From NCBI GenBank assembly GCA_964425445.1, contig CAYRLY010000001.1:5537-69536 (forward strand): a DNA stretch of 64,000 nt, written 5' to 3'. The notes beneath the pieces are model-generated. The model made no database searches, had not been told where the DNA came from, and was given only the letters and a program-made list of their open reading frames with translations. Below are positions 13,491-44,485 of this stretch, in pieces. The position numbers and the translations under genes are program-made. Position 1 is the first letter of the stretch. Every line of letters starts with the position of its first letter. The DNA comes from an uncultured Candidatus Saccharibacteria bacterium (lineage in GTDB: Bacteria; Patescibacteriota; UBA1384; XYA2-FULL-43-10; CAINNR01).

Positions 13491-13492
13491 GA

Positions 13493-13527
13493 TTGACAAT
13501 TTAAAAAAAATAACATACGATAATATA
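13493..13527 (+). promoter_or_regulatory. sigma70-like promoter for the GC-rich GHMP kinase gene
   Basis: TTGACA, spacer of about 17 nt, then GATAAT/TATACG-like -10 immediately upstream. Confidence 0.4.
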
Positions 13528-13565
13528 CGATGTTCCGAGATTACCAACAAGGAGACTGATAACTG

Positions 13566-14675
13566 ATGCCTAGAGTGCAAATAGTACAGCCTATGATGAC
13601 ACCGACCTTCTTGGGTTGGGCGGCACTTCGGGGTATCGATTGGGGGAAGTGGAGCGATGTCAAGAAGTTCTTGGAGCTGATTGGCTACGGCATGGTCTGT
13701 AACCTGTCGATGGTTCTCTCACCGTGGGGATCCGGAGGCAGGATGAAGGGAGTGGAAGTCGCAGCCCGAGTAATGCCTATGGCTAGGCAGCAGGGCCGAG
13801 TCATCGTCAACGCTGGTAGTGATCCGTCCTACGATGCCCTTGTGAGTGCAGCCGACCTAGCTGGTGGCCAATTCAATGTCAAAGAGCTGGTACTCTGCAT
13901 TCTCTCAATGTTGGATCTTGATCCACTTCGAGAGAACGATCTACACATCGATCTTATCTCGCCTGCACTGCCGGGTGCCTCGCTTGGTACATCTGCCAGT
14001 GTACTAGTCGCAATCTTGAGCGCCTTCCTTGGCGACAGTTACACGGCGGACGAGATTTGGCTGATGGCCTTGCGGGCTGAGTACGAGATTGCTCGCCGTA
14101 ATACTGGCAACCAAGATCATATCGCCGCTATTATGGGAGCCAGAGAAGAAATAAAGACTCCAGCCAGACTAATCACCATCAACGATCTCTTCGATGTGGA
14201 GATCGAACACTTGGTGGTAGGCCCCATGATCTCTGCCGTCCTGCCAAATACTCTGGTGTCGGTCATCGGGGCCCATGACAGCTCCGATACTCACCAGAGG
14301 CTACAGGACGAGCTCGAGGGCGATCCGGAAATGGCGCGGGACAAACTCTGCGCAATGCGCAACACCGCCGTCATGGCCGCCAACGCTTTTCGTAGCGATT
14401 CACCAGATCAGCTATTTGCCTCGATTGACGCTTTGCTGGCTGCTCAGCAGTCTTTGAGTACTGGCCTGATAGGACCGTTCCACTGGAAGATAATTCAGGA
14501 CGCCAGGGCATACGGAGGCTATTCCGGTGTGCCTGGTGCCGGTGGCGACGGGGGGTCAGTGATCACTGTTTTTCAGGAAGCTGACTCCATGAGATGTTTC
14601 GCAGAGTCGATTCAGCTGGCTTTGCCGGACATCCGCCTTTTCCAGGCCGGCTACCCCGGCATCAACTTCGTGTAG
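13566..14675 (+). CDS. GHMP-family sugar/small-molecule kinase on a GC-rich islet
   Basis: GHMP ATP-binding motif LPGASLGTSASVLVA; RBS AAGGAG upstream; composition and codon use differ markedly from the neighbours. Confidence 0.65.
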   Translation: MPRVQIVQPMMTPTFLGWAALRGIDWGKWSDVKKFLELIGYGMVCNLSMVLSPWGSGGRMKGVEVAARVMPMARQQGRVIVNAGSDPSYDALVSAADLAGGQFNVKELVLCILSMLDLDPLRENDLHIDLISPALPGASLGTSASVLVAILSAFLGDSYTADEIWLMALRAEYEIARRNTGNQDHIAAIMGAREEIKTPARLITINDLFDVEIEHLVVGPMISAVLPNTLVSVIGAHDSSDTHQRLQDELEGDPEMARDKLCAMRNTAVMAANAFRSDSPDQLFASIDALLAAQQSLSTGLIGPFHWKIIQDARAYGGYSGVPGAGGDGGSVITVFQEADSMRCFAESIQLALPDIRLFQAGYPGINFV

Positions 14676-14702
14676 TGACCCGTTGGTCACTGCCTCTCTT
14701 TT

Positions 14703-14733
14703 GTCCCGACACCATGTCGGGACACTTTTTTTT
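14703..14733 (+). terminator. intrinsic terminator after the GHMP kinase gene
   Basis: gtcccgac-acca-tgtcgggac hairpin followed by a T8 run. Confidence 0.75.
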
Positions 14734-14764
14734 ACCCTGTAAATTTGCTAGTATCGAGGGAGTG

Positions 14765-16927
14765 ATGAAGGAATTTTCTATAAAAAGTTGGTTTAGAAAA
14801 TACTGGCCGCTTGTCGGCTATTTTTTGATTTCGATAATATTCCTCTATCCGGTTCTGATTCAAAGGGGAGTACCGTTTAAATATGATTGGCTTTGGCCCC
14901 TTTTTGATATGAATGAATATTGGCGGGTGATCGCCGACAAGAGTAGCTTTGGTCTGGTTTCATCACTTGGGAAATATGCCAATTCTTTCTTCGGCCTCTT
15001 TGGTTGGTTGCATATTTCGCCAAATATTGCCCTTAAAATATTTTTACTCCTGATCCATACTGCCTCTGGTTACGGTTTTTATCTCCTGGTTTCTAGAAGG
15101 ATCAAATCAGCCGCCGCTGCATTTATCGCCGGTATCGCCTACGCTTTTTCGCCCTATATATTTATTCGAACGATCGTCGGATTTATATATTCATTGATCG
15201 CTTATGCCTCATTGCCGTTTTTCTTAAATATCTTTATAAACCATAAGAAGAAAAAAATCCTTGATTTTCTGCTGATGGGTTTACTTTTTTCTTTGGTAGC
15301 TTCACAGATTCAGGCGGGGATACTTCTGGTGTTTCTGGTGATCGTCATCAGCTTCTCCGAGAGAAAGAAGATTGTATTTCGATTAAAAGAGCTTGTCCTA
15401 TTGTTAGCTTCTGTCTTGATCGTCGCTTTGCCTTGGATTATTTACCTTCTGTTTATCGGTGGCAATGTGCAACCCATTGATGGTGGGCAGGTGACGACGC
15501 TAAATTATATCGCCAATTTGCCTCATAGTTTGCGTAATGTATTGTTTTTCTCTGATCACATAATTACCAGGGATTACTTTTATTCATTTGCCAGAGAGCC
15601 GATAGTAATCATCGGTTTTGTTCTTTTTTATCTGGTTGCTCTATTTTCACTCTTCGATAAAAAGAACCGATCCCTCGTGCTCTCCCTGATAATTTCGACC
15701 TTGATAATAATTCCATTTTCTATCGGGCCGACCAAAATTTTCACCGGTTTTTACACCTTCGTCTTCAATCATCTTTCGCAGCTGGCTGTCTTTCGCGAAA
15801 CCTATCATTTCCAGTTTCTGCTCTCGTTTAACTTTATCGCCTTATTTGCCTTTGGCCTTTCGTATATTTTCAAAAATTTAAGCAACAAAAGACCCTTCTT
15901 CTGGCTGATAAAAGTAATTGCTGCCTCATCAATAATAATTGTGATTGCACCTTATTTGGGTCTTGATTATGCCGGCTATTTTCGCCTTCAAGAGATTCCA
16001 GATGAATACCATCAAGCAGATGAGTTTTTTCAAGAAAACGCCGACTATTGTAAAAAAGCTTATTACCCACCAAACTTGGGATTTGTCCGATTCGCTTCTG
16101 ACCCGACAGCAGAAACTAGTGCCTCAAACTCGGATATTATTGCTTGGGATTTTGGCTTGCCTCGAGTAACCGATGCCGCCTCAGTTTTGTCGATCGCCGG
16201 TGATGAAATGTATCAGCGCAATCATCTGACGTCACAATTTTTGGAATTTTCTGACAATGGTGAATTTGCCGCTCTGGCCAAGGAGCAGGGAGTTGACTGC
16301 GTCATCATCCGTGATGATCTTACTAGCTTATATTTTTTGGCGAATAATGTCTGGCGTGATCCGTCATTTGATGTTCGCTTGAAGTGGATGAATCAAGATA
16401 TGTTGTCATTGGCCGAAAGTAAGATCGGTCTTCGTCTTGATAAAAAATTCGGGGGCAAAATTTACCTTTATAAAGTTGAGTCAGATAAGAAATATGAGGC
16501 AAGTAGGTTGATCGATCAAGTTCCCGATGGCATAAAATTGCCAATTACTGATTGGGCGAATAATTATGATTGGTATACCGAGGGTTGGGCGAGGGGACGG
16601 TACAATTTTTGGCGCAAACACCTTTTTGCTCAACTTGCACAGGATTTTATTTATACAAACAAATCCGACTCCGAAGTTAGCGGAAAGATCGCCGAGAGCG
16701 GCTCCTATGACCTGGTAATTAGATATTTGGATGGAGGAGAGGAGGGGAAATTCGAAATCCGAATATCGAAATTCGAAACAATTATCGAGAAAAAATCGGG
16801 GGAAGAAAGACTTGTCGTCAAAAATCTTGGAGCGATTGATATCAAGAAAGGCGATACAATCACAATTAAAAATACATCTGGCGAGAACGCTATCGCCGAT
16901 CTGTTGTTGGTCGGGAGTAAGGAGTAA
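14765..16927 (+). CDS. large polytopic membrane protein with a C-terminal extracytoplasmic domain (YfhO/GT-C-like), hypothetical
   Basis: Start at ATG 14765 preceded by GAGGGAG. The ORF track start at 14594 lies inside the upstream GC-rich gene and terminator and is rejected. About 13 TM helices followed by a soluble domain of about 250 aa. Confidence 0.55.
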   Translation: MKEFSIKSWFRKYWPLVGYFLISIIFLYPVLIQRGVPFKYDWLWPLFDMNEYWRVIADKSSFGLVSSLGKYANSFFGLFGWLHISPNIALKIFLLLIHTASGYGFYLLVSRRIKSAAAAFIAGIAYAFSPYIFIRTIVGFIYSLIAYASLPFFLNIFINHKKKKILDFLLMGLLFSLVASQIQAGILLVFLVIVISFSERKKIVFRLKELVLLLASVLIVALPWIIYLLFIGGNVQPIDGGQVTTLNYIANLPHSLRNVLFFSDHIITRDYFYSFAREPIVIIGFVLFYLVALFSLFDKKNRSLVLSLIISTLIIIPFSIGPTKIFTGFYTFVFNHLSQLAVFRETYHFQFLLSFNFIALFAFGLSYIFKNLSNKRPFFWLIKVIAASSIIIVIAPYLGLDYAGYFRLQEIPDEYHQADEFFQENADYCKKAYYPPNLGFVRFASDPTAETSASNSDIIAWDFGLPRVTDAASVLSIAGDEMYQRNHLTSQFLEFSDNGEFAALAKEQGVDCVIIRDDLTSLYFLANNVWRDPSFDVRLKWMNQDMLSLAESKIGLRLDKKFGGKIYLYKVESDKKYEASRLIDQVPDGIKLPITDWANNYDWYTEGWARGRYNFWRKHLFAQLAQDFIYTNKSDSEVSGKIAESGSYDLVIRYLDGGEEGKFEIRISKFETIIEKKSGEERLVVKNLGAIDIKKGDTITIKNTSGENAIADLLLVGSKE
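16748..16778 (+). repeat. in-frame heptanucleotide tandem repeat (CGAAATC / CGAATAT / CGAAATT units) inside the membrane protein gene
   Basis: aaattcgaaatccgaatatcgaaattcgaaac, translated GKFEIRISKFETI. Confidence 0.6.
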
Positions 16928-19700: not shown

Positions 19701-19832
19701 ATTTACCTCAAAAAGTATTATATCATATTAAAATTCTACTTTGAATCTATGACAGAACACTCTATTTAAAAAAATATCAGCTCTGGTAAACGAAAAAATC
19801 TATACCGACAGCATACATTTAGTTTTTTTCTA

Positions 19833-19862
19833 TTGACACAGCATAGATTTATGGTATATAAT
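19833..19862 (+). promoter_or_regulatory. strong sigma70-like promoter in the 620-bp intergenic region
   Basis: TTGACA, 18-nt spacer, then TATAAT. Confidence 0.55.
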
Positions 19863-19868
19863 AAGGTC

Positions 19869-19966
19869 AACATTAACAACTTAATATGACTTTGATCGCG
19901 GAGGGGCGATAAGTGTTTCTGTTAGTTGTGTCGTATTGTGCAGCTCCTCTTGCGAGGAGTTTTTTT
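19869..19966 (+). ncRNA. candidate small transcript / structured 5' leader ending in a GAGGAG-containing hairpin plus T7 run
   Basis: Promoter at 19833; ctcctc-ttgc-gaggag hairpin at 19944-19959 followed by TTTTTTT. The hairpin sequesters a Shine-Dalgarno sequence placed 8 nt before ATG 19968. Confidence 0.3.
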
Positions 19967-19967
19967 A

Positions 19968-20123
19968 ATGTTTCGAGCCGTTGGCGAGAAGCTTTTGGAA
20001 AGTTGTTCTAAGGTGATTAGATCCAAAAGTTTCTCGCCAAAAAATGCCAAAACAAAAACAGAAAGATCTGAAGAAAAATTGGCGAGGAACCTGGGGAAGG
20101 CAATCATAGAGTATGTCTCTTGA
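19968..20123 (+). CDS. possible 51-aa basic small protein (MFRAVGEKLLES...)
   Basis: ATG preceded by GAGGAG; contains an 18-bp near-perfect inverted repeat (19981-19998 and 20023-20040), which argues for an RNA structure instead. Confidence 0.2.
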   Translation: MFRAVGEKLLESCSKVIRSKSFSPKNAKTKTERSEEKLARNLGKAIIEYVS

Positions 20124-20279
20124 TTGACTTCTATAAGTCAATTAAGGGATGCTACGAAGCGATTTCCAAGTCGTTTTCGCGACACCCCTCAAAGGCGTAA
20201 GTGACGCGACAGGGCAATAATTAAAAAATTTTGTTCCCTATAAGTCCGCAAATCCTTGCGCCTTTTTTAATTGATAAAA

Positions 20280-20312
20280 GTTCGACAGAAAAAATGTTCA
20301 CCTGTTATAATA
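20280..20312 (+). promoter_or_regulatory. extended -10 promoter (TGTTATAAT) for pcrA, near-leaderless
   Basis: TGnTATAAT at 20304-20312, 10 nt before the ATG at 20323. Confidence 0.35.
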
Positions 20313-20322
20313 CAAAAGCTCA

Positions 20323-22218
20323 ATGAAAGATTTACTAAAAGATTTAAATAGTGCGCAGCAAGAAGCGGTCCGAACTACCGAAGGGCCGGTTTTAATTTTA
20401 GCTGGGGCAGGGAGCGGTAAAACTCGGGCATTGACTCACCGCTTGGCTTATCTAATTTCTGAGAAAAAAGTTTCCCCGACGAACATTTTGGCAGTTACTT
20501 TCACCAATAAAGCAGCGGGAGAAATGAAACAGCGGACAGAAGCGCTGCTAGCCGAAAGCCCTAAGTCGAAAGTCGAAAGTGCGAGGAGTATTCTTCCGTG
20601 GCTGGGAACCTTTCATTCAATTTGTGTAAAAATTCTGCGCCGAGAGGCAAAGCATATCGGTTACCCCTCAGGCTTTACGATTTATGATAGTCAGGATCAG
20701 CTTTCGGTTGTCAAGAAAATTATGCAAGATAAGGGGATCGACCCCAAACATTACAACCCAAATGCCGTTCTTCATTTCATTTCTGGGGCAAAAAACGAAT
20801 TTATCTCTCCTGAGGGTTACGAAAAGTATGTTAACTCGCCGTTCGAAGAAGTAGTCTCGACTGTCTATAAGGAATATCAAAAGTATCTTAAAACTGCTTT
20901 TGGTATGGATTTTGATGATCTTTTGGTTTTGTGTCTTAAACTTCTGACTGAGAACAACGAGATTTTGCAGAAATACCAGAATATTTTTAAATATATTCTG
21001 ATTGATGAATATCAGGACACAAATCACGTTCAATATCTTTGGGCGAAGTTGTTGTCAGAAAAGAGCAAGAATATTTGTGTTGTGGGTGATGATTCACAAT
21101 CAATTTACGGTTTTCGCGGGGCAAATTTTCGCAACATTCTCAATTTTGAGCGTGATTTTCCAGGGGCGAAAGTAATAAAACTAGAACAAAATTATCGCTC
21201 GACCGGTAATATTTTACGAGCAGCTGATGAACTCATCAAATATAATAAACAGAAGACTGAGAAGACTCTGTGGACCGAAAATCCAGTAGGATCTCCACTT
21301 CTTGTATACCAGGCGTTGAATGAAAAAGATGAAGCCGAATTTGTGGCGATGGAGACCAGGGGGCTGGCGGCAGTTTCGGGTAAATGGTCGGATTTTGCCG
21401 TCCTCTACCGTACCAACGCTCAATCGCGAGCAGTAGAGGAAGCTTTCATTCGCTTTGGCATTCCATACCGAGTAGTTGGTGGAATCCGTTTTTATGAGCG
21501 TAAAGAGATAAAAGATATCTTGGCTTATCTTAAATTAATTGCCAATCCTAATGATCGAGTATCTTTTGAGAGGATCGTAAACGTTCCAGCAAGAGGGATT
21601 GGATCAAAAACCCTGATAAAATATTTCTCTGGCCTATCCGGTCTAAACCCTGAAGTTCCGGAAAAGATTCAAAATTTTTTAGATATGGTACATCTTATCA
21701 GGGACAAGGCAAAAGAGCTTTCTGTGGCTGATCTGATAGATTTGATAGCAGAAAATAGCAGCTACAAGGAGTATATTTTGGATGGTACTCCGGAGGGCGA
21801 GGGGCGCTACGAAAACATCATGGAGTTAAAATCTGTTGCCGCATATAACGATGCCTTGAGCCTCGAAAAACCGCTAGAAAACTTTCTGGAAAAAGTCGCG
21901 CTGTATCAAGATGCCGATGATTATGATTCCAATTCAAACGTTGTTACTCTGATGACATTGCATGCTGCAAAAGGCTTGGAATTTAAAAATGTTTTTTTGG
22001 TTGGTGTCGAAGAGGGAATTTTACCACATTCTAGAAGTGTCGGAGATCAGAGTGAGGTAGAGGAAGAGAGACGACTTTGTTATGTAGGCCTCACCAGGGC
22101 GATGAAGAAGCTTTACATCTTATATGCCTCCGAGAGAATCTATTTCGGCAATCCGCAGATTAACCAGCCTTCGAGGTTTATTTGTGAAATACCCGACGAT
22201 GTCAAAAAAGAGTTATGA
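20323..22218 (+). CDS. pcrA: ATP-dependent DNA helicase PcrA/UvrD (compact, 631 aa)
   Basis: LNSAQQEAV...AGAGSGKTRALTHRLAYLI Walker A and UvrD motifs throughout. Confidence 0.88.
   Translation: MKDLLKDLNSAQQEAVRTTEGPVLILAGAGSGKTRALTHRLAYLISEKKVSPTNILAVTFTNKAAGEMKQRTEALLAESPKSKVESARSILPWLGTFHSICVKILRREAKHIGYPSGFTIYDSQDQLSVVKKIMQDKGIDPKHYNPNAVLHFISGAKNEFISPEGYEKYVNSPFEEVVSTVYKEYQKYLKTAFGMDFDDLLVLCLKLLTENNEILQKYQNIFKYILIDEYQDTNHVQYLWAKLLSEKSKNICVVGDDSQSIYGFRGANFRNILNFERDFPGAKVIKLEQNYRSTGNILRAADELIKYNKQKTEKTLWTENPVGSPLLVYQALNEKDEAEFVAMETRGLAAVSGKWSDFAVLYRTNAQSRAVEEAFIRFGIPYRVVGGIRFYERKEIKDILAYLKLIANPNDRVSFERIVNVPARGIGSKTLIKYFSGLSGLNPEVPEKIQNFLDMVHLIRDKAKELSVADLIDLIAENSSYKEYILDGTPEGEGRYENIMELKSVAAYNDALSLEKPLENFLEKVALYQDADDYDSNSNVVTLMTLHAAKGLEFKNVFLVGVEEGILPHSRSVGDQSEVEEERRLCYVGLTRAMKKLYILYASERIYFGNPQINQPSRFICEIPDDVKKEL
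20551..20588 (+). repeat. GTCGAAA heptamer tandem repeat, in frame in pcrA
   Basis: ctaagtcgaaagtcgaaagtgcgagg, translated PKSKVESARS. Confidence 0.55.
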
Positions 22219-23275: not shown

Positions 23276-23304
23276 TTGACAGTCTTTTTTTAATCGTCTA
23301 AAAT
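23276..23304 (+). promoter_or_regulatory. near-consensus sigma70 promoter
   Basis: TTGACA, 17-nt spacer, then TAAAAT. Confidence 0.6.
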
Positions 23305-23310
23305 ACTTAT

Positions 23311-23527
23311 TTGGTGACAAGCATCAGCTGGAGGTGAAGAGTTTTGAGAAGGCCACATTCAGGCGAGCAGAGGGACATCGAAGATGATATGCGGTTGGAG
23401 TCACTGGCCGCTAATGGCGGTGATCAGCTAGCCTTGCAGGTATTGCAGGCTGATCGTGTCCGAGCTCCCCAACAGGAAGCTCAATCGAGTCGAGACCGGG
23501 CCAAATAGGTGCCGGTCTTTTTTTAAT
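23311..23527 (+). ncRNA. GC-rich transcript of about 210 nt of unknown identity bounded by promoter and terminator. Alternatively it is the mRNA of a 54-aa ORF (TTG 23344 to TAG 23508, SD GGAGG).
   Basis: Promoter at 23276; gaccgg-(gccaaataggtg)-ccggtc hairpin followed by T7 at 23494-23524; GC-rich unlike the flanks. Confidence 0.4.
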
Positions 23528-25834: not shown

Positions 25835-25851
25835 CCGAGCCTAGGGCTCGG
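25835..25851. terminator. bidirectional terminator hairpin between mntH and the convergent GC-rich gene
   Basis: ccgagcc-tag-ggctcgg with an A-run before and a T-rich tract after. Confidence 0.55.
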
Positions 25852-26167: not shown

Positions 26168-26232
26168 CCTGACCACCTCCTTATAGGCCGAGAATAGCAT
26201 AATGAGTAGATTTTTGCTACAATTTCTTCACA

Positions 26233-27626: not shown

Positions 27627-27649
27627 TTCTCACCGCGCCCGCACCATGC

Positions 27650-30445: not shown

Positions 30446-30448
30446 ATT

Positions 30449-31237: not shown

Positions 31238-31242
31238 TTTTG

Positions 31243-31298: not shown

Positions 31299-31355
31299 AA
31301 AAAGTTACCTAAAATGTTACCTTATTTACAGGTAATTCTTTAAATTTATATCATA

Positions 31356-32827: not shown

Positions 32828-32865
32828 AATCCCGCCATGGGCGGGAGTCGGTCTTGCGGCATGAG

Positions 32866-33129: not shown

Positions 33130-33207
33130 GGCGTTTCCTCCGATTTAGTTTTGGACGCTAAATATTTGTAACATAAAATAATAAATCTGTCAATAATAAG
33201 GAGTAAA

Positions 33208-33624: not shown

Positions 33625-33626
33625 GA

Positions 33627-34430
33627 ATGAAAGTTTTTGATGGCCGAAAAATTCAAAAAGAAATCCTGGCTAAGATTAAGAAACGGCTAGAAAAAATTGA
33701 TTACCAGCCAACACTAGCGGTGATTTGGGTTGGCAATGATCCGATCTCTGCTCGGTATGTGGCAATAAAACAACGAATTGCTGAAGATTTGGGGATACAT
33801 TTTGATATTTATAAATATTCGACCGATGTCGAAATCGAAGAGTTAATTTCAAAGATTAAGGAGTTAAATCTGGAGAAAAAAGTCGATGGGATAATGATCC
33901 AGATGCCACTTCCGAGTCGAGTTGATTCAATAAAAATAATTTCAGAAATTGACCCCAAAAAGGATGTTGACGGGCTTAGAATGTGTGCTGATCTTGTATG
34001 CGAGATAAGACCGCCGGTAATAAAATCGGTGCTTATGGCAATAAAATCATCCGGTGTGGATATCAGGAAAAGCAAGGTAGCAATTGTTGGTAAGGGTTTC
34101 TTGGTTGGTGCACCACTTATTAAAATCCTGCAACAATTGGCTCTCGAGCTTAATGTTGCCGATATAGAAACCCCATACATTGGCACTATGACTGCCGATG
34201 CTGATATTGTGATCTCAGCGACGGGCAAAGCCGGTCTCATCACTTCGGATATTGTCAAGGATGGAGTCGTGATAGTCGACGCTGGTACCTCGGAAGTTGG
34301 CGGAGAACTTAGGGGGGATGTCGATCCTGAAGTTTACAAAAAGGCCTCGCACTATACTCCAGTCCCCGGTGGAATTGGTCCGGTAACCGTGGCAATGTTA
34401 TTTAAGAATTTAATTGAAAAATTGAAGTAA
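33627..34430 (+). CDS. folD: bifunctional methylenetetrahydrofolate dehydrogenase/cyclohydrolase
   Basis: KIDYQPTLAVIWVGNDPISARYVAIKQR and the FolD-typical C-terminal TPVPGGIGPVTVAML. Confidence 0.9.
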   Translation: MKVFDGRKIQKEILAKIKKRLEKIDYQPTLAVIWVGNDPISARYVAIKQRIAEDLGIHFDIYKYSTDVEIEELISKIKELNLEKKVDGIMIQMPLPSRVDSIKIISEIDPKKDVDGLRMCADLVCEIRPPVIKSVLMAIKSSGVDIRKSKVAIVGKGFLVGAPLIKILQQLALELNVADIETPYIGTMTADADIVISATGKAGLITSDIVKDGVVIVDAGTSEVGGELRGDVDPEVYKKASHYTPVPGGIGPVTVAMLFKNLIEKLK

Positions 34431-35566
34431 TGAAGCTAGCTGTTGCGATGTCCGGAGGCGTTGATTCTTCGGTAGTAGCTAAAATTTTAAAAGATCAGGG
34501 CCACGATCTAGTCGGTTTATTTTTAAAGATGTGGTCTGACCCGACCTGCTCAGCTAAAAAGGAGAATCGTTGTTGTGACTACGAAGCGCTTGAGGATGCA
34601 AGAGTAGTAGCAAAAAGTCTTAATATTCCTTTTTATGTTATTAATGCTGAAAAAGAATTTAAGAAAATGGTTGTCGATTATTTCCTTGATGAATATAAGA
34701 ATTTACGGACTCCAAACCCCTGCGTTGTTTGTAATAAAAAAATCAAATTTGATCTTCTTTTGCGCAAAGCGCTAGGGATTGATTGTGACAAGTTGGCAAC
34801 CGGACACTACGCCAGAATTGTCGAGGACAATTCTGGAATTTCTAAATTCGAAATCCGAAGCACGAAACAAAAAAAATCAAATTTCAAACTATTAAAAGGA
34901 ATTGACGAAACAAAGGACCAATCCTATATGCTTTATTCTTTAAATCAGGATCAACTTGGGAAAATTATCTTCCCTATTGGAGGAATGAGGAAAAAAAATG
35001 TTCGGGATTTAGCGATTAAATGGAATCTCCCAGTTAAGGAAAAGCCGGAGAGCCAGGAGATCTGTTTTTTCGCTGATAGAGATTATCGCTTATTTTTAAA
35101 AAGATATTTGCCGAAGAAATATTTTCGATCAGGTGACATTGTTGATACTAATGGTAAAAAAATTGGAAAACATGAAGGCTTGATAAATTACACAATTGGA
35201 CAGCGGAAAAGGTTGGAGCAAGAAGTATGGAGCAAGAAGTATGGAGATAAAAAACCATTATATGTTATCGGATTTGATATCAGGAATAATCAGTTAATCG
35301 TTGGCGAGGACAAAGATGTTTATTCGGATAAAATGGTGGTGACAGATTTAAATTTTATCCATGATTCACAATTCATAATTCATTATTCTAATCTTACAGT
35401 GAAGATTCGCTATCAACATCCGGCTGTGGAGTGCCAGATTGAAAATATTTCTAACAAAGAACTAAAAGTAAAATTCAAAAAATCCCAGAGAGCAATAACC
35501 CCGGGTCAATCAGCAGTGTTTTATCTAGAGGACGAGGTCATTAGTGGCGGAGTAATTGAATCTTAG
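34430..35566 (+). CDS. mnmA: tRNA-specific 2-thiouridylase
   Basis: KLAVAMSGGVDSSVVA PP-loop; catalytic Cys residues; C-terminal beta-barrel. Confidence 0.9.
   Translation: MKLAVAMSGGVDSSVVAKILKDQGHDLVGLFLKMWSDPTCSAKKENRCCDYEALEDARVVAKSLNIPFYVINAEKEFKKMVVDYFLDEYKNLRTPNPCVVCNKKIKFDLLLRKALGIDCDKLATGHYARIVEDNSGISKFEIRSTKQKKSNFKLLKGIDETKDQSYMLYSLNQDQLGKIIFPIGGMRKKNVRDLAIKWNLPVKEKPESQEICFFADRDYRLFLKRYLPKKYFRSGDIVDTNGKKIGKHEGLINYTIGQRKRLEQEVWSKKYGDKKPLYVIGFDIRNNQLIVGEDKDVYSDKMVVTDLNFIHDSQFIIHYSNLTVKIRYQHPAVECQIENISNKELKVKFKKSQRAITPGQSAVFYLEDEVISGGVIES
34835..34868 (+). repeat. TTCTAAA/TTCGAAA/TCCGAAG heptamer-like repeat, in frame in mnmA
   Basis: ggaatttctaaattcgaaatccgaagcacgaaac, translated SGISKFEIRSTKQ. 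Confidence 0.5.
35214..35243 (+). repeat. tandem duplication of the 15-mer GGAGCAAGAAGTATG, in frame in mnmA
   Basis: ggagcaagaagtatg occurs twice, translated LEQEVWSKKYGD. Confidence 0.6.
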
Positions 35567-35639
35567 ATAGTTGCACATTCTACTTTATCTTTTTTTTAAT
35601 TTATTTAAAAACCCCGACGCAATGATCGGGGCGGGGCTG

Positions 35640-36206
35640 TCATCCGCTAGTGACCTTCTGGGCCAGGCGGATGATCTCTGATAGAGGGTGGTGCCGACGC
35701 ATCCTCAGCACCGACCATGGGAGACGTATGTCTCTGGGTTCAGGATTCGAGGAGGTGCTGACCACCGGTGTTCCATCATTGGTCTCTTCAGACTCAGGGC
35801 CAGGCTCTAGATATGGGAGGTCGATTACCGGCATGCCATCCTCGGCCTCCTCGGGCGTGGTAGCGAAGACGATCAGACGTTTCTTGATCTCCTCGATCGT
35901 CTCGCCGGTGATCTTGGCGATCTTATCAAAAGGAATCAGATCGGTGACGACACCCGCCGGTACCGGTCCGCCGGAGGCAATATCCCCGGCATTGTGTTGG
36001 AGAAATACAACATCGCCAACACCGAGCCGGAAGGTGATCCGACTGGCGGCTCGAATCGCCACGATCTCCTGTTCTTTGCCACTTATATCGGGGAATGGTA
36101 TGAACTCTACTCCACAGTCGGCGGTTCCGATTATGGGGCTATCCGACACAACGACGATTCTACCTTTGCCCATTCCAAAGACTCCCTTCGGGGGATTCAT
36201 GCTCAA
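35640..36206 (-). CDS. GC-rich hypothetical protein (188 aa)
   Basis: Protein-like minus-strand ORF (GVFGMGKGRIVVVSDSPIIGTADCGVEF...). The overlapping plus-strand ORF is Ser/Arg/Pro-rich, as expected for a wrong frame in GC-rich DNA. Confidence 0.4.
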   Translation of the reverse strand: MSMNPPKGVFGMGKGRIVVVSDSPIIGTADCGVEFIPFPDISGKEQEIVAIRAASRITFRLGVGDVVFLQHNAGDIASGGPVPAGVVTDLIPFDKIAKITGETIEEIKKRLIVFATTPEEAEDGMPVIDLPYLEPGPESEETNDGTPVVSTSSNPEPRDIRLPWSVLRMRRHHPLSEIIRLAQKVTSG

Positions 36207-36308
36207 GATTTTTATAACATAATACTAAAAAATAGTCAATGGTTTTTTCGGTAACTGCCCCCATTACTATCATTATTTAGAGGATCTCTCGACAAAGCTC
36301 GAAATGTA

Positions 36309-36345
36309 CACCTATTCCCACACCCCGTAGGTGTGGGAATAGGTG
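36309..36345. repeat. perfect 16-bp inverted repeat (hairpin / palindromic protein-binding site) upstream of recG
   Basis: cacctattcccacacc-ccgta-ggtgtgggaataggtg; no T-run follows. Confidence 0.55.
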
Positions 36346-36459
36346 TGAGAACCCCGTGCTTGAACAAGTCAAGAGATCCTTCACTATGTTCATGATGACA
36401 CAAGATCGAGTGAGCAGTTATTTTTGGTGCCAATTGTTGCTTTGTTGTACAATTAAGCC

Positions 36460-38511
36460 ATGGAAATAACTCTAAAAACCAAAGTCCAGTATCTCAAAGG
36501 CGTCGGGCCGAAAATGGCCTCGAGGTTAGATCGACTGGGGATTAAAACAATTTACGACCTCATCTTTTATTTTCCTAGGACATATTGTGATTATTCCAAA
36601 ATTACCAAAATAGCCGATCTAACAATTTCTAATTCCGAATTTCTAATTTCTAATGAATATCAAAACCCAAATGTTAAAACAATAAAGGCCAAAATCATCA
36701 ACATCGCTAATCGAAGAACATCTAGACGTAGATTCACGGTTACTGAAGCGGTAGTTGCCGACGAAACTGGCAGTATAAAAGTAGTTTGGTTCAATCAACC
36801 GTATCTGGAAAAAATGTTAAAAGCTGGCAGAGAGATTATTTTAAACGGGAAAGTTAGAAGAAGCAGTTATTCCGGTGAGTTGCAGATGGAGTCGCCAAAT
36901 AGGGCTGATAAACCAAAGATTGTGCCGGTTTATTCGGAAACTGTGGGCATATCGAGCTACTATATACAGAAGTTAGTAAAATCTGTCAGCTGTCAGCTTT
37001 TAGTTGTCAGAGAATACCTTCCGGAAGAAATTATTAAAAAAAATAATTTAGTAGGGATATCGGCTGCGATTTCCGAACTGCATCAGCCGACAAGTACGGA
37101 AAAATTAGGAGAGGCTAGAGATCGGATGGCTTTTGATGAACTTTTTCTTTTTTCTCTTCAGAAACAGCTGTTGAAAAAAGATATTTTAATTCACGGTTCA
37201 CCAAAGATTGAGATAGACGAGGATTTTTTAAAAAAGTTCACCAAATCTTTGCCTTTTGAACTCACCGGAGCGCAGAAAAAAACGGCGTGGGCTATAATAA
37301 AAGACTTAAACTCCGATAAGCCGATGAATCGGCTCTTGAACGGTGACGTTGGTTCAGGCAAAACTGTGGTCGCAGCGATGGCGGCGGCTTTAGTGGTTAA
37401 ATCTGGCCTGCGGGTGGCAGTGATGGCACCGACAGAAATTTTAACACTTCAACATTATGAGACCTTAAAGAAGATATTACCCTCATTCTCGATTTCAGTC
37501 GGTTTAGTTAGCGGAAGCAAAAAGGAGCTTGTGGATGCGGAGATTGTTGTTGGTACTCATGCACTGATTAGCGGAAAAACTATTCAAAAAAATCTTGGTT
37601 TAGTAATTATTGACGAGCAACATCGTTTTGGTGTCCAGCAGAGAGAAAAACTTTTGCAAACGAAAACTAGTCGACGTCCGCATTTTCTTTCAATGACGGC
37701 GACGCCGATCCCGAGGACAATGTCACTAGTATTATTTGCCGATTTAGATGTTTCAGTAATTGATGAAATGCCGAGAAACCGCAAAAAAATTATTACAAAA
37801 GTAATTGCTGGAGATCGTCGCAAATCAGCCTACAATTTTATTCGAAAAGAGATCGATGAGGGCCATCAGGCGTTTGTTATTTGTCCATTGATTGAGGAGC
37901 AAGAGAAAGTGAGCGGAAAGTTAGAGATTTTCGAAGAGGATAGAAAAGCAGTGCTCCATGAATACAAAAAACTGAATGAGGAGATTTTTCCCGGTGCCAA
38001 AATCGCCATGCTTCATGGGAAGATGAAGTCAGGGGAGAAGGAGAGAGTGATGGCAGATTTTCGGGAGAAAAAATTTGACATTTTGGTGTCTACATCGGTG
38101 GTCGAGGTTGGAGTCGATATTCCTGGAGCGACGATTATGATGATTGAAAACGCCGATCGTTTTGGGCTTGCCCAACTTCACCAATTCCGTGGTCGTGTCG
38201 GCCGATCTGATTTACAGTCGTATTGCCTTCTCTTCTCATCATCGATGAGCGAAAATGCTCGCAAGCGGCTGAAGTATATGGAAAATATTCATTCTGGTTT
38301 TGAGCTAGCAGAAAAGGATCTAAAACTGCGAGGCCCAGGGGTTTTGTATGGCTACAAGCAGTCTGGTTTCTGGGATTTCCAGTTCGCCAGTTTGAATGAT
38401 AAAATAATGATAGAGAAAGCGACAGAAGCGGCCAAGACAGTCATTGGCGAAATTGAAAAATATCCACTGATATTAAAGAAGATTAGTGATAGATCAAAAC
38501 ATCTTGAGTAA
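36460..38511 (+). CDS. recG: ATP-dependent DNA helicase RecG
   Basis: N-terminal wedge/OB domain; helicase motifs GDVGSGKTVVA and DEQHRFG; QFRGRVGR. Confidence 0.9.
   Translation: MEITLKTKVQYLKGVGPKMASRLDRLGIKTIYDLIFYFPRTYCDYSKITKIADLTISNSEFLISNEYQNPNVKTIKAKIINIANRRTSRRRFTVTEAVVADETGSIKVVWFNQPYLEKMLKAGREIILNGKVRRSSYSGELQMESPNRADKPKIVPVYSETVGISSYYIQKLVKSVSCQLLVVREYLPEEIIKKNNLVGISAAISELHQPTSTEKLGEARDRMAFDELFLFSLQKQLLKKDILIHGSPKIEIDEDFLKKFTKSLPFELTGAQKKTAWAIIKDLNSDKPMNRLLNGDVGSGKTVVAAMAAALVVKSGLRVAVMAPTEILTLQHYETLKKILPSFSISVGLVSGSKKELVDAEIVVGTHALISGKTIQKNLGLVIIDEQHRFGVQQREKLLQTKTSRRPHFLSMTATPIPRTMSLVLFADLDVSVIDEMPRNRKKIITKVIAGDRRKSAYNFIRKEIDEGHQAFVICPLIEEQEKVSGKLEIFEEDRKAVLHEYKKLNEEIFPGAKIAMLHGKMKSGEKERVMADFREKKFDILVSTSVVEVGVDIPGATIMMIENADRFGLAQLHQFRGRVGRSDLQSYCLLFSSSMSENARKRLKYMENIHSGFELAEKDLKLRGPGVLYGYKQSGFWDFQFASLNDKIMIEKATEAAKTVIGEIEKYPLILKKISDRSKHLE
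36624..36654 (+). repeat. AATTTCT heptamer tandem repeat (reverse complement of the CGAAATT family), in frame in recG
   Basis: aatttctaattccgaatttctaatttctaat, translated ISNSEFLISN. Confidence 0.55.
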
Positions 38512-39144: not shown

Positions 39145-39203
39145 AGCTGAGGAAGTAATTCGTTTAGTTTTTCGGCTTGGTGAGTGCAATATTTCGGGGA
39201 CGA

Positions 39204-39292
39204 GAAAGCCGGAGGCGCGACTGGCGCCGAGGCGGGGTCGAGCGAAATTTCAGCAGAAATTTACGCGTGACCGAGTCCCTCTACGCCCACCA
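39204..39292 (+). other. conserved GC-rich structured element (copy A) ending in a 21-nt direct repeat of the tRNA-Leu(TAG) 3' end. Possibly a miniature integrative element, an att remnant or a tRNA-linked small RNA.
   Basis: gaaagccggag + hairpin + gaggcggggtcga + hairpin with a CAGCAG loop + gtgacc + cgagtccctctacgcccacca. The last block is identical to 39124-39144. Confidence 0.6.
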
Positions 39293-39348
39293 ATTTGAGA
39301 AAAAAACTGGATTTATTCCAGTTTTTGTTATTTTGTTATAATAAATGC

Positions 39349-39635: not shown

Positions 39636-40535
39636 TTGCCAATGAAAAAAGAGCGGAAAATCATTTGTATTGTTGGCCCGACGGCCAGCGGAAAAACTGG
39701 CTGGGGGGTTTCTGTTGCCAGGAAGTTCAATGGTGAGATTATTTCAGCTGATTCTAGGCAGGTTTACCGTGGTTTAGATATTGGCACAGGTAAAGATCTC
39801 GAGGACTATCGTGATGTCAAATATCATTTAATTGACATTTGTGAACCGGGTGTATATTTTACGATGTTTGATTGGCTTGAGCGCGCCAGAGAAATTATTG
39901 AAGATATTTTTACTCGTGGCAAAACACCTATTATTGTTGGAGGGACAGGGTTATATGTTCAAGCATTGATCGAAGGATTTGAGCTAAAAGTCGAAAGTCA
40001 AAAGTCGAAAGTCAAAAGATATCGGAGGGAGGAACTGGAATCTAAGTCGCTAGAAGAATTGCAAAAAATCATTTTTAAATTGAAAATTTTAAATTCTAAA
40101 TTGGATATGAATAATCCTCATCGAATAATCCGGGCAATTGAGAAAGTCCAGTCCGGTGAAATTGCTAATAAAAAGAAACCGGATTTTCAAGCATTGCAAA
40201 TTGCTATCGATCTACCACGCGATGTTTTATATGATCGAATAGATCAAAGAGTTGAAGAGCGTTTTGAACAGGGAATGCTGGAAGAGGTAAAAAGCTTGAT
40301 TGCCTCTGGAGTTGATAAAAAATGGTTGCTTGGATTGGGGCTTGAATATCGAATTATTGGTAGATTTGTGCTAGGTGAAAATAACCAAATCTTTGATGAG
40401 ATGAAACAGGAACTTAAATACAAAATTCATGCTTTTGCCCGACGCCAGCTAACTTGGTTTCGGCGTTTTCCGGAGATTGTTTGGTGTAACGATTTAAAAT
40501 CGGCTGAAGAAGAAATTAAAAAATTTCTGATATAA
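39636..40535 (+). CDS. miaA: tRNA dimethylallyltransferase
   Basis: IICIVGPTASGKTG P-loop and SADSRQVYRGLDIGTGK. Confidence 0.9.
   Translation: MPMKKERKIICIVGPTASGKTGWGVSVARKFNGEIISADSRQVYRGLDIGTGKDLEDYRDVKYHLIDICEPGVYFTMFDWLERAREIIEDIFTRGKTPIIVGGTGLYVQALIEGFELKVESQKSKVKRYRREELESKSLEELQKIIFKLKILNSKLDMNNPHRIIRAIEKVQSGEIANKKKPDFQALQIAIDLPRDVLYDRIDQRVEERFEQGMLEEVKSLIASGVDKKWLLGLGLEYRIIGRFVLGENNQIFDEMKQELKYKIHAFARRQLTWFRRFPEIVWCNDLKSAEEEIKKFLI
39987..40018 (+). repeat. GTCGAAA/GTCAAAA heptamer tandem repeat (4 units), in frame in miaA
   Basis: aaagtcgaaagtcaaaagtcgaaagtcaaaag, translated KVESQKSKVK. Confidence 0.6.
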
Positions 40536-41852: not shown

Positions 41853-43388
41853 ATGAAAATTGCCAAGGTAAAAAGTTGCGCAGTTTTTGGGCTGGATGCT
41901 TATCCAGTTGAAGTTGAAGTCGATATTGGACGGGGGCTCCCGTCTTTTTCAATAGTCGGGTTGCCCGACAAAGCAATTGACGAATCAAAGGATCGTGTTC
42001 GTAGTGCGATAAAAAACTCTGGCTTGTTTTTCCCCGACAAGCGCTTGACGGTCAACTTGGCCCCCGCGGATATTAAAAAAGAGGGCCCGACTTACGATCT
42101 GCCGATCGCTGTCTCGATTCTTTTGGCCGGTGAGCAAATTTCTGATGAGTCAATTAGCAGCGATGATATATTTATCGGCGAACTTTCTTTATCGGGCGAA
42201 TTGCGCGCGGTCTCTGGGATATTACCGATGATAATGGCAGCAAAGGAATGGAAAGTAAGGAGAGTTTTTATCCCAGTTGATAATTCAAAAGAAGCCGAGT
42301 TGATAAGTGGGCTGGACATCTATTCGGTTCGATCGCTTGAAGAGCTTGTTAATTTCTTGCGTGGCGAGATTGAAATCAAGCCGATCGAAAAAACCGGTAT
42401 TGTCGAATCAGAAGAAATAATTTCTGAATATGACTTCGCTTTTGTTGCTGGGCAGGAAAATGCCAAACGGGCGCTAGAAATTGCTGCTGCCGGTTCCCAT
42501 AATGTGCTTTTGTCTGGCCCGCCGGGTTCTGGCAAAACTCTTTTGGCCAGAAGTCTGCCGACAATCTTGCCACCGATGGAGGAAGACGAGATTCTGGAGA
42601 GCTCAAAAATTTACAGTGTTGCTGGGCTACTTCACCGCGGAGATCTGGGGATAGTGAGCAAAAGGCCGTTTCGGTCGCCACATCACACAACTTCTTCAGT
42701 TGCGATGGTTGGTGGAGGCACTTGGCCAAGACCGGGTGAGATCTCCCTGTCGCATCGCGGAGTTCTTTTTTTGGATGAATTCCCAGAATTTCCCCGAAGC
42801 GTTCTTGAAGCTTTGCGCCAACCGTTAGAAGATGGCTTGGTCACTGTTTCTCGCGCTCAAGGTTCAATAAGTTTTCCGGCGCAGTTTATATTACTCGCGG
42901 CTCAAAATCCTTGTCCGTGTGGTTATCTTGGCTCCGATTATCGTGAGTGTATCTGCAGCCCAACACAAATTATTAAATATCAAAAAAAAGTTTCCGGCCC
43001 TCTCCTGGATCGAATTGATATGTATGTTGAGGTTCCAAGGGTAAAGATTGAAAAATTATCGGCAACCGTCAAAGCGGAACCAAGCAAAACTGTGAGATCT
43101 AGAGTGATGATAGCAAAAAAAATACAACAAGAAAGATTTAAAGGGACTAAAATCAAGTCGAATTCTGAAATGAGAAATAATGATATCAAAAAATACTGTC
43201 AGGTTGATGAGCGAACAAAGAAACTTCTAAATTCAGCGGTTGAAAGACTCGGGCTCTCTGCTAGAGGTTATCACCGGATTTTAAAGCTGGCGCGCTCAAT
43301 ATCTGACTTAGCAAACGAAAAAAATATTTCTTCCACACATATTGCAGAGGCCTTGCAATATCGGCCAAAAGAGAAGAAAGAATATTAA
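41853..43388 (+). CDS. comM: YifB/ComM-family Mg-chelatase-like AAA+ ATPase
   Basis: N-terminal Lon-like domain; GPPGSGKTLLARSLPTILPPM Walker A; GVLFLDEFPEF Walker B. Confidence 0.88.
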   Translation: MKIAKVKSCAVFGLDAYPVEVEVDIGRGLPSFSIVGLPDKAIDESKDRVRSAIKNSGLFFPDKRLTVNLAPADIKKEGPTYDLPIAVSILLAGEQISDESISSDDIFIGELSLSGELRAVSGILPMIMAAKEWKVRRVFIPVDNSKEAELISGLDIYSVRSLEELVNFLRGEIEIKPIEKTGIVESEEIISEYDFAFVAGQENAKRALEIAAAGSHNVLLSGPPGSGKTLLARSLPTILPPMEEDEILESSKIYSVAGLLHRGDLGIVSKRPFRSPHHTTSSVAMVGGGTWPRPGEISLSHRGVLFLDEFPEFPRSVLEALRQPLEDGLVTVSRAQGSISFPAQFILLAAQNPCPCGYLGSDYRECICSPTQIIKYQKKVSGPLLDRIDMYVEVPRVKIEKLSATVKAEPSKTVRSRVMIAKKIQQERFKGTKIKSNSEMRNNDIKKYCQVDERTKKLLNSAVERLGLSARGYHRILKLARSISDLANEKNISSTHIAEALQYRPKEKKEY

Positions 43389-43389
43389 A

Positions 43390-43707
43390 CTAGCTGGTAC
43401 GAATATTTAGAACTTTGATCAGCCAATCACCAAGTTTGTCGATTAGATCAGTCTGATTTTGGAGTATTTTCACACCAGCGAGAATGAGAACTAGAACAAA
43501 AACTGTGATTAAAATCATTTTAATATCTCTAGAGATCAATTTCTTAGTTGACGCATCAATAGTACTTGCGCTTATCGTCTCGTTTGTTTTTCCCTCATCT
43601 TTAGTATCTATCTCTTGAAAATCTAAATTTTTCTCAGGTGCAGAATACTGCTGGACTTTCTTTTGAATCTTTTCTTTTCTTTTCTTATTGCGATTTCTTT
43701 TGCTCAT
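43390..43707 (-). CDS. small Lys-rich membrane protein, hypothetical
   Basis: ORF track; basic N-terminus and a single TM helix. Confidence 0.35.
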   Translation of the reverse strand: MSKRNRNKKRKEKIQKKVQQYSAPEKNLDFQEIDTKDEGKTNETISASTIDASTKKLISRDIKMILITVFVLVLILAGVKILQNQTDLIDKLGDWLIKVLNIRTS

Positions 43708-43727
43708 AATTATTATATAAATTTATA

Positions 43728-43802
43728 TGGAGCGGGAAACGGGACTTGAACCCGCGACCTCATCCTTGGCAAGGACGCGCTCTACCACTGAGCTACTCCC
43801 GC
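43728..43802 (-). tRNA. tRNA-Gly (anticodon GCC)
   Basis: The reverse complement gcgggagtagctcagtggtagagcgcgtccttGCCaaggatgaggtcgcgggttcaagtcccgtttcccgctcca folds as a cloverleaf. Confidence 0.85.
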
Positions 43803-43894
43803 GTAATTACACTAAAAAATTTATCATTTTTTTACCTTGTTGTAAAGAATTGATTCTTGTTGATTGACTAAATTTTAATTTTAAAACCCGCGGT

Positions 43895-44485
43895 CTAGTA
43901 GACGCGGGTCGGTGCTTCGGGTATCTCTCCAAGTGCCCGGAGCCGGCGCTGGTTGATCACCTCAAGAGTGATCCTTTTCCAAAGCGGAATCGGCTCAATT
44001 GATGGCACCCAAATGGAAGGGATTCCGAGTCGATTGGCTCCGAGGATGTCGGTGCCGAATTGGTCACCAACCATCAGCGTGTTATCTAGGGTAGCGCCAT
44101 CCATCTCTGACATCGCTATCTCCAGCGCTCGTGGGTTCGGTTTCGTTGGATGTGGCCAGTAGTGGGCGACATACTGACACTCAAGGGCTTCGGCTAGCTT
44201 CTCGATCCGTCTGGCCATGAACCACAATTGAGCGTTTGAGGTCAGGCAGATCTCCCAGCCGTTGTCTTGGGCAGCTCGCAGGTTTTGTGCGATCTCTTCC
44301 GGCACAACCATCTTGCAGATCTGTGTGATTGTGCCATCGACATCGAGCAGCAGCTTAGAAAGTCCTTGTTCTCGCAGCGCTTCGAAGTCAATCGAGGCGA
44401 CGCTGCGAGCCTGGTAAGTCGGGCGGAACCTTTCGATGCTTTGAGCCAACAGAATCACCCCTTCTGGGTTTTTGTTGTGCTGCAA
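43895..44485 (-). CDS. GC-rich HAD-superfamily hydrolase (YqeG-like phosphatase)
   Basis: LLDVDGTI motif I and MVGDQFGTDI motif IV; GC-rich, unlike the neighbours. Confidence 0.6.
   Translation of the reverse strand: MQHNKNPEGVILLAQSIERFRPTYQARSVASIDFEALREQGLSKLLLDVDGTITQICKMVVPEEIAQNLRAAQDNGWEICLTSNAQLWFMARRIEKLAEALECQYVAHYWPHPTKPNPRALEIAMSEMDGATLDNTLMVGDQFGTDILGANRLGIPSIWVPSIEPIPLWKRITLEVINQRRLRALGEIPEAPTRVY

Follow-up and report, generated by a model that had tools for sequence, protein, structure and literature searches.

The stretch of DNA analyzed here, referred to as the window, comprises 64,000 nucleotides of contig CAYRLY010000001.1 and carries, between 13.5 and 44.5 kb, eight short GC-rich open reading frames (ORFs) scattered among AT-rich core genes. 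These eight ORFs, termed islets and designated GHMP, I54, I119, I203, I103, I87, I188, and HAD, are probably old, mostly vertically inherited, separately transcribed genes that are held at a maintained GC-rich equilibrium. Their GC-richness survives the saturation of synonymous sites between relatives and stops at the edges of the transcription units, which therefore argues for a standing, gene-specific equilibrium and against the fading relic of a donor. Judging from their sequences, the products include a GHMP enzyme that resembles sugar kinases, a phosphatase of the HAD-IIIA type, a predicted secreted beta-barrel, and several small acidic orphans.

The core reference set consisted of 45 plus-strand genes with a GC content of 0.390 (standard deviation 0.035) and a GC content at third codon positions (GC3) of 0.362 (standard deviation 0.043, maximum 0.495), and the GC content of the whole window was 0.402. 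The islet ORFs had GC contents of 0.49-0.58 and GC3 values of 0.54-0.74, which correspond to GC3 z-scores of 3.8-8.7 above the core genes. Codon choice in the islets was opposite to that in the core, with NNC favored over NNT in every two-fold pair, and the share of TTA among Leu codons was 0.22 in the core versus 0.02 in the islets. The amino acid make-up and all three codon positions were shifted as well, with more Arg, Ala, and Pro and less Lys (8.7% in the core versus 2.8% in the islets), and the islet proteins are all acidic, with isoelectric points (pI) of 4.5-5.5. The dinucleotide signature of the pooled islets differed from that of the pooled core genes (delta* 0.16), and six of seven islets were nearer to other islets than to the core by this measure, I203 being the exception. 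Hence the description of GC-rich islets in an AT-rich window, given in the initial annotation, was borne out by computed GC, GC3, codon use, and dinucleotides alike. When GC was computed in 50-bp bins, it dropped from about 0.55 to 0.22-0.38 inside 50 bp of the islet ORF ends; the exception was the terminator region common to I203 and I103, where it was 0.44-0.54.

The break in strand bias that the initial annotation had reported was also confirmed, since the minus strand carries five of the eight islets versus 4 of the 53 other genes (Fisher p = 0.001). The islets are separate promoter-gene-terminator units between long co-directional core operons, and they often lie head-on to these. Terminator-like hairpins follow seven of the eight islets, in agreement with the earlier description of single genes, or a convergent pair, with their own terminators. 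HAD lacks a clear terminator; tRNA-Gly and then a small gene, p105, come after it in the same orientation. The islets had further been described as bracketed by hairpins; both hairpins quoted in support (25851-25835 and ~27650-27698) exist, but hairpins occur on the downstream side only, and the upstream regions are AT-rich promoters resembling those of sigma-70. Two simple causes of the composition were considered and rejected. High expression does not entail GC-richness in the window, as GC3 is about 0.33-0.40 in S1, MetRS, and further housekeeping genes (0.33-0.39 in S1 and MetRS, which as a rule are highly expressed), and neither fast evolution nor location on the minus strand can be the sole cause, as p105 and TPR164 are fast-evolving and minus-strand, yet AT-rich.

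Conservation and divergence in related genomes

A scan of species-representative genomes for MnmA gave eight loci with 60-65% amino acid identity, six of which were labeled Candidatus Berkelbacteria or Patescibacteria group, and the core gene order was co-linear with that of the window. The window itself belongs to Candidatus Berkelbacteria, within the Patescibacteria. A metagenome scan contributed 48 further loci, and the closest relative other than strain-level contigs was represented by a 27.8-kb locus (L076). Orthologs in the same slot were found in relatives for five of the eight islets (GHMP, HAD, I103, I203, and I188), and these orthologs are likewise GC-rich, including where synonymous sites are saturated. 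The best islet homologs were all found in a Berkelbacteria-type gene order.

The closest homologs of GHMP (62, 46, and 36% identity) all lie in contigs with Berkelbacteria-type gene content, and pairwise GHMP distances are tree-like. In every close relative (L019, L021, and L022) the gene has a GC content of 0.525-0.563 in a locus with a GC content of 0.35-0.42. Orthologs sit 3' of MetK in L021 and L022. Behind the L021 ortholog come, in the same order as in the window, genes for a membrane protein, two surface proteins, a TPR protein, and UvrD. The locus with the 62% homolog, L019, has no MetK alongside, and the neighbors there are different. Between the window and L021 the proportion of synonymous differences (pS) is 0.73-0.81 for all genes, yet the GC3 of GHMP is 0.61 in both. 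Orthologs of HAD occupy the same slot in the same relative orientation in three relatives (79% identity in L074, 58% in L072, and 30% in L012) and have GC contents of 0.50-0.535, the remainder of the locus being at 0.38-0.41. In L076, the ortholog of I203 is 83% identical and in the same slot, and that of I103 is 78% identical and just upstream of MetRS, as is a full-length I103 ortholog in L016 (26% identity, E = 2e-7). I188 has 52% identical homologs in its slot in both L076 and L028, and a marginal one in L016.

Nonsynonymous (dN) and synonymous (dS) divergence were estimated by the Nei-Gojobori method. The dS of the islets was 0.6-1.4, which is inside the range for adjacent core genes (0.4-2.4), and the individual values are given in Table 1. 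Islet proteins evolve about twice as fast as the neighboring core proteins, under purifying selection, with a median dN/dS of 0.21 for the islets versus 0.095 for their core neighbors (Mann-Whitney p = 0.013).

I87 and I119 occur in this species only, in strain-level contigs, and their flanking core genes abut in L076, from which both are missing. The I87 slot is also empty in L011, L013, and L014. The identical I87 protein has the same surroundings in 13 contigs, which come from independent samples and from different assemblers. I119 was found in its slot only in strain-level contigs, and in other relatives this slot holds unrelated minus-strand ORFs or open stretches of about 105-150 aa. No homology was detectable between I87 or I119 and the same-slot ORFs of relatives. 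The slot between MnmA and RecG, which holds I188, varies across the clade from 0 bp (the L014 group) to 3281 bp, with a slot GC of up to 0.56 and an ORF GC of up to 0.71, and accommodates at least three slot-specific families, namely the I188 family, an Ala/Thr-rich family whose members have a signal peptide, and another of about 95 aa. The RsmI/MetRS and p480/RsmI slots vary similarly, and GC-rich minus-strand ORFs occur in these two slots and in MnmA/RecG in many relatives. Different unrelated cassettes in one slot were seen at MnmA/RecG, not at the GHMP or HAD slots, and among 125 GC-rich ORFs from all loci no family was found in two slots. Since I87 and I119 are missing from L076 and the MnmA/RecG slot is variable, gene gain and loss does occur; to this extent the earlier view of insertions between core genes holds, but five islets have orthologs in the same slot in relatives. 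By sequence comparison, the islets were thus shown to behave as a lineage-restricted accessory class, most of which stay in fixed slots, with occasional loss and with some slots holding different families in different lineages. The coding status of I54 appears the least certain among the eight, and the related loci that were compared do not reach its slot.

Candidate forces and alternative explanations

The persistence of the composition points to a continuing force, which we infer to be bounded by the transcription unit and which would keep the islets GC-rich. Ranked first, and put forward tentatively, is selection by which base composition or codon use would serve as a device of expression, separating the islets from the AT-rich majority of genes in transcription, mRNA stability, or translation. 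Such a device would be a mirror-image counterpart to AT-rich islands retained for silencing or to rare-codon regulons. AT-rich pathogenicity islands are maintained under silencing of the H-NS type; we know of no silencing system in bacteria belonging to the candidate phyla radiation (CPR). It is unlikely that the force would be GC-biased repair or conversion acting where accessory loci are prone to recombination, and quite improbable that it would be a mutation bias coupled to transcription. A broader proposal, possible but doubtful, is that Berkelbacteria carry two long-lived composition compartments, an AT-rich operonic core and scattered, separately transcribed, fast-evolving GC-rich genes, and that the GC-rich make-up of the latter is selected as a composition-coded regulon, the reverse of AT-rich islands that persist for xenogeneic silencing.

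Several observations weigh against a maintained equilibrium in mostly vertically inherited genes. The divergence of adjacent core genes is very uneven. Relative to L076, dS is 0.04-0.08 for p160 and FolD and about 1.3-1.5 for MnmA, IscS, and RsmI, and EamA is saturated; in the strain contig L001, a FolD with 60% nucleotide identity stands beside an MnmA with 99.9%. This mosaic spans positions 29600-38500 of the window in the comparisons with L076, L001-L003, and L007. With dS values from 0.04 to more than 2 in adjacent genes, homologous recombination between diverged lineages must therefore be very frequent, and it blurs the argument from co-divergence. The GC excess of all islets taken together also appears to depend on lineage, with values of 0.16-0.20 in L013, L017, and L018 but of about 0.06-0.08 in L016 and L012 (small numbers), and the islet homologs of L012 and L016 are only 0.05-0.10 above background, so that the excess is non-uniform. 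Polarized substitutions (weak-to-strong/strong-to-weak, that is, A/T to G/C and the reverse) were balanced in HAD (7/6 and 15/9) and leaned toward strong-to-weak in I188 (5/17 and 2/12) and GHMP (18/23 and 12/28). This lean could mean slow decay of the GC-rich state, and parsimony is biased in the same direction in GC-rich sequence. The restriction of I87 and I119 to one species and the turnover at MnmA/RecG indicate that some islets may be real gains. The gene p105 (GC 0.34) is fast-evolving, minus-strand, and AT-rich, so that these traits alone are insufficient for GC-richness. Lastly, of two distant GHMP homologs (about 31-32% identity), one lies in an actinobacterial contig of 73% GC, which fits an ancient high-GC source; the other lies in a contig of 36% GC and has host-like GC, and the two contexts together give no firm donor. 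The islets may ultimately be of foreign origin, through ancient transfer into the ancestor of the clade.

An unlikely alternative is a neutral local process of no selective meaning, either GC-biased heteroduplex repair at hot spots of recombination or a mutation bias that stays within the transcription unit. The shift of all codon positions and of amino acids, as if a pressure had hit every site, would be expected under such a process, the evidence for recombination in this population is strong, and the apparent lineage dependence of the GC excess hints at a genome-wide factor. Against it stand the sharp GC edges within 50 bp of the ORF ends, the recently recombined genes FolD and p160, which are not GC-rich, and p105, which is adjacent to an islet, minus-strand, and fast-evolving and is AT-rich. 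In addition, a shift of 25-35 points in GC3 is, to our knowledge, far above the effects reported for biased conversion in bacteria.

It is improbable that the islets are replacement cassettes drawn from a GC-rich pool circulating among Berkelbacteria or shared with a GC-rich partner or host, which would be swapped by homologous recombination in conserved flanks, as at O-antigen loci, and would carry the composition of the pool. The unrelated families and length range of the MnmA/RecG slot, the presence or absence of I87 and I119 between close relatives, and the mosaic of core divergence, which amounts to rampant recombination, are all in line with such a pool, and atypical GC can persist at one locus, as in O-antigen clusters (PMC3715488). 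Moreover, strains with 81-93% identity in IscS and NifU share an I87 unit that is 100% identical. This identical block is not bounded by the islet, however, and continues into the flanking IscS and NifU, and the strain contigs concerned were chosen for their identical I87 protein, which constitutes an ascertainment bias. Furthermore, islet dS matches that of the immediate neighbors and is neither near zero nor saturated relative to them, GHMP distances follow a tree, and no member of the pool was found outside Berkelbacteria-type contexts.

The initial annotation had proposed repeated import from a high-GC donor, possibly by the small mobile agent that left GC-rich elements next to tRNA genes. 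Recent repeated transfer of this kind is very improbable and is mainly an option for I87 and I119, whose restriction to the species is among the points in its favor. The others are the atypical GC, codon use, and dinucleotide signature of the islets, the strand-bias break, the organization of each islet as a promoter-gene-terminator module like that of a phage moron (PMC2920897), the GHMP homolog in the actinobacterial contig, and the tRNA-Leu elements described below, whose duplicated tRNA 3' ends suggest that some integrating agent was active. For GHMP, HAD, I103, I203, and I188 the proposal is largely refuted by the comparative data, in that these genes occupy the same slot and are GC-rich in relatives diverged to saturation, with dS values equal to those of their neighbors. 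The initial annotation had itself named related genomes with the same genes at the same positions and with host-like composition as evidence against import; the positions are indeed the same, but the composition there is not host-like. No donor homologs were found, I87, I103, and I119 not being among the large-database queries. Neither repeats flanking the islets, nor shared ends, nor target duplications were found in the window, and no integrase linked to the islets was found. A scan of viral contigs with four of the eight islets gave no close relatives; the scan works on exact peptide words and detects close relatives only. PHROG and PADLOC profile scans, which took in all eight islets, matched no family. 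A link between the islets and the tRNA-Leu elements was rejected, since the element motif is confined to two tRNA-Leu genes. Lastly, acquired genes and orphans in bacteria are usually AT-richer than their host (PMC3514957, PMC6519830).

An artifact, whether a chimeric assembly from a GC-rich organism or chance ORFs in GC-rich spacers that are non-coding or specify structured RNA, has a negligible probability: GC-rich DNA does bear long ORFs on both strands (e.g., 35650-36222 on the plus strand, which overlaps I188), and two islet transcripts fold slightly better than shuffled sequences (z = -2.3 and -3.6, terminator hairpins included), but the divergence of I188, I103, I203, HAD, and GHMP decreases from third to first to second codon position, islet dN/dS is 0.12-0.30, two islets match Pfam or NCBIfam models, a third has a confident predicted fold, and Rfam gave no match in the islets. 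A structured-RNA reading was rejected on these grounds. As regards assembly, for which a check for chimerism had been proposed earlier, different samples assembled at the Joint Genome Institute (JGI), for the European Nucleotide Archive (ENA; MEGAHIT and SPAdes), and in Logan gave identical junctions, I87 and I119 were found as exact proteins in the same context across several samples and assemblers, and the junctions recur in other species, so that a chimera was rejected as well.

Individual islets and neighboring features

The coordinates of the islets, their signals, and the tRNA-linked elements are collected in Table 1.

Table 1. Islets and associated features of the window, with composition and synonymous divergence (dS of the islet, followed by dS of neighboring core genes).
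Feature	Position	Strand	GC	GC3	dS (neighbors)	Details
GHMP promoter, sigma-70-like	13493-13521	+				TTGACA-17-TACGAT, 10/12 matches; AT-rich, abuts GC-rich ORF
GHMP-kinase-like gene (GHMP)	13566-14675	+	0.55	0.61		369 aa; Pfam GHMP_kinases_N
Tandem terminator-like hairpins after GHMP	14672-14724	+				14672-14693 and 14702-14724, then T run
I54 unit	23276-23527	+				Promoter 23276-23304; ribosome-binding site GGAGGTG; terminator hairpin ~23497-23526
I54 ORF	23344-23508	+	0.56			54 aa, TTG start; GC3 z-score 3.8
I119	25841-26200	-	0.56	0.70		Acidic 119-aa orphan; terminator hairpin 25835-25851 overlaps stop codon
I203	27015-27626	+	0.50	0.54	0.84 (MetRS 0.70, RsmI 1.47)	Secreted, signal peptide; 12-stranded beta-barrel predicted by AlphaFold model
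Two-way terminator common to convergent I203/I103	27643-27698					Palindrome aggcgcTTTTTTTcatgAAAAAAAgcgcct and second hairpin
I103	27717-28028	-	0.49	0.61	0.68 (MetRS 0.70, RsmI 1.47)	103-aa orphan; promoter-like site 28089-28061
I87 unit	32830-33207	-				Terminator 32830-32846; promoter ~33178-33207
I87 ORF	32866-33129	-	0.58	0.74		Acidic, 87 aa
I188 unit	35611-36206	-				Terminator 35611-35632
I188 ORF	35640-36206	-	0.56	0.62	1.02 (MnmA 1.26, RecG 0.41)	Acidic orphan, 177-188 aa; dN/dS 0.30
Element after tRNA-Leu(TAG)	39145-39293	+				GC-rich, non-coding, family D7; ends in copy of tRNA 3' end
tRNA-Gly, then p105	43728-43802	-				Same strand after HAD; from gene table
HAD-IIIA (YqeG-like) phosphatase unit	43895-44520	-				Promoter-like site 44520-44492
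HAD gene	43895-44485	-	0.55	0.63	L072: 1.42 (p524 1.64, ComM 2.4); L074: 0.61 (p105 0.90, ComM 1.0, SecG 0.18)
Second copy of element, after tRNA-Leu(CAG)	46735-46849	+

The GHMP protein scores 29.5 bits against PF00288 (GHMP_kinases_N; cut-off 22.3), a domain present in all 107 of its 107 homologs. The C-terminal domain PF08544 scores 13.8 against a cut-off of 21, and the mevalonate-kinase models are far under their cut-offs. The name heptose-7-phosphate kinase is a JGI label only, attached to homologs of at most 37% identity. Downstream, the ORF 14594-16927 begins inside the 3' end of GHMP; the conserved membrane protein that it encodes probably starts near 14762, from where relatives align, and its first 56 codons (14594-14761) are likely spurious. 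Upstream, a SAM (S-adenosylmethionine, S-box) riboswitch at 12123-12228, with 52.2 bits versus a gathering score of 44.4, precedes the S-adenosylmethionine synthetase gene (12284-13450). In the TPR/UvrD slot of L021 there is a GC-rich 86-aa ORF (14919-15179, GC 0.56, GC3 0.71). The counterpart of this slot in the window, 19701-20322, has ordinary GC and contains a perfect promoter (TTGACA-18-TATAAT, 19833-19862) and, at 19942-19961, a hairpin resembling a terminator, which possibly delimit a small transcript. At I54, no structured RNA was indicated, the fold z-score being just -0.8.

I203 was modeled with AlphaFold from a 13-sequence alignment, which gave 12 strands, a predicted local distance difference test score (pLDDT) of 88.4, and a predicted TM-score (pTM) of 0.80. 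The top Foldseek matches were the OmpG, invasin, and FapF barrels, with a probability of 0.99 but with E > 1e-3 and TM-scores of 0.3-0.45, so that the model suggests a predicted secreted barrel with a weak resemblance to outer-membrane barrels. The lineage is generally regarded as being without an outer membrane, and outer-membrane barrels are the nearest weak matches of I203. The protein is represented by 12 cluster representatives among 1.84 billion proteins. I188 forms two clusters among 5.8 billion proteins, and its structure model is poor (pLDDT 34). HAD passes the HAD-IIIA model TIGR01662 (53.6, cut-off 44.6) and is below the threshold of the YqeG equivalog model TIGR01668 (73.1, cut-off 89.1).

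The tRNA-linked elements that the initial annotation had placed at ~39204 and ~46759 do exist, but they are non-coding, carry a motif found only at the two tRNA-Leu genes, and have no link to the islets. The element is about 105-150 nt long, with a core of GAAAGCCGGAG, a hairpin, GAGGCGGGGTCGA, CAGCAG, and GTGACC in this order, and it usually closes with an exact copy of the last 21 nt of the neighboring tRNA. It was also found in L018 (~14953-15100, minus strand) and in L034 (downstream of 16040), other relatives being without it. It represents either what is left of a small integrating element that targets tRNA genes or a small RNA linked to the tRNA.

Among the core genes, a PhdYefM-antitoxin-like gene of 69 aa (31356-31565) overlaps the start of IscS by 4 nt and lies directly upstream of IscS in those Berkelbacteria-type relatives whose loci reach there; no toxin partner is visible alongside it in the gene tables. 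In-frame heptanucleotide tandem repeats, (AAGTCGA)n and (AAATCCG/AAATTCG)n, occur inside core genes at 16748-16796, 20550-20581, 28856-28901, 29261-29317, 31793-31845, 32418-32452, 33335-33374, 34837-34871, and 39982-40021. The genes that bear them encode the membrane protein, UvrD, MetRS, IscS, NifU, MnmA, and MiaA, and the encoded peptides include KVESRKS and KFEIRN. The repeat site in MnmA coincides with an insertion that is hypervariable among nine Berkelbacteria, at 0-35 residues, and the strain contigs of NifU differ exactly at the heptanucleotide repeat. These repeats resemble hot spots of variable in-frame insertion within housekeeping proteins.

Relation to known systems and significance

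Phage morons are inserted between conserved genes, have their own promoter and terminator, and have a GC content unlike that of their neighbors (PMC2920897). The islets resemble them in being single, independently regulated genes of deviant GC between two genes of a conserved co-directional array, and in that the inserts at a given hot-spot position differ between related genomes. Unlike morons, the islets reside in a cellular chromosome, where they are flanked by MetK, KsgA, RsmI, MetRS, IscS, NifU, MnmA, RecG, and tRNAs; they are mostly old and vertically inherited, their families are confined to a single slot and one class of genome, and their shift is toward GC. O-antigen and capsule loci (PMC3715488) share with the islets an atypical composition that persists at a locus across lineages, variable content between conserved flanks, and surface- or interaction-related genes, here including a sugar kinase beside a glycan cluster. 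The islets differ from these loci in being GC-rich, which is the opposite sign, in being single genes of 0.2-1.1 kb rather than clusters of 10-40 kb, and in having a synonymous divergence that matches that of their flanks, unlike ancient swapped alleles. Acquired islets and orphan ORFs (PMC3514957, PMC2718499) are likewise short, fast-evolving, lineage-restricted, of deviant composition, and located between core genes, but they are typically AT-richer and patchy among strains, whereas the islets described here are GC-richer, mostly stable in position, and devoid of the signature of an integrative element.

Most islets oppose the dominant, presumably leading-strand, direction and evolve faster than their neighbors, as do head-on genes. 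However, three of the eight islets are co-directional and equally GC-rich, and other minus-strand genes are AT-rich. Work by Paul et al. in 2013 is said to have found that head-on (lagging-strand) genes evolve faster; we know of no GC bias in collision-induced mutation.

Compositionally deviant islets are known as such, and no description of this pattern in Patescibacteria was found in the literature. What is unusual here is the long-lasting GC-richness of single genes in an AT-rich CPR genome. Atypical GC is routinely taken as a sign of recent horizontal transfer, a reading that fails for these old residents, and the islets caution against composition-based calls of horizontal transfer and against dropping such regions from CPR genome bins. 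If the cause were biased repair at recombination hot spots, its effect size would be unusually large for bacteria. If the composition is actively maintained, the islets would represent a clean, small-scale bacterial case of a gene-specific compositional equilibrium in a reduced, uncultured CPR lineage, and they would provide a handle on how CPR cells set apart a few, probably surface- or interaction-related, genes.

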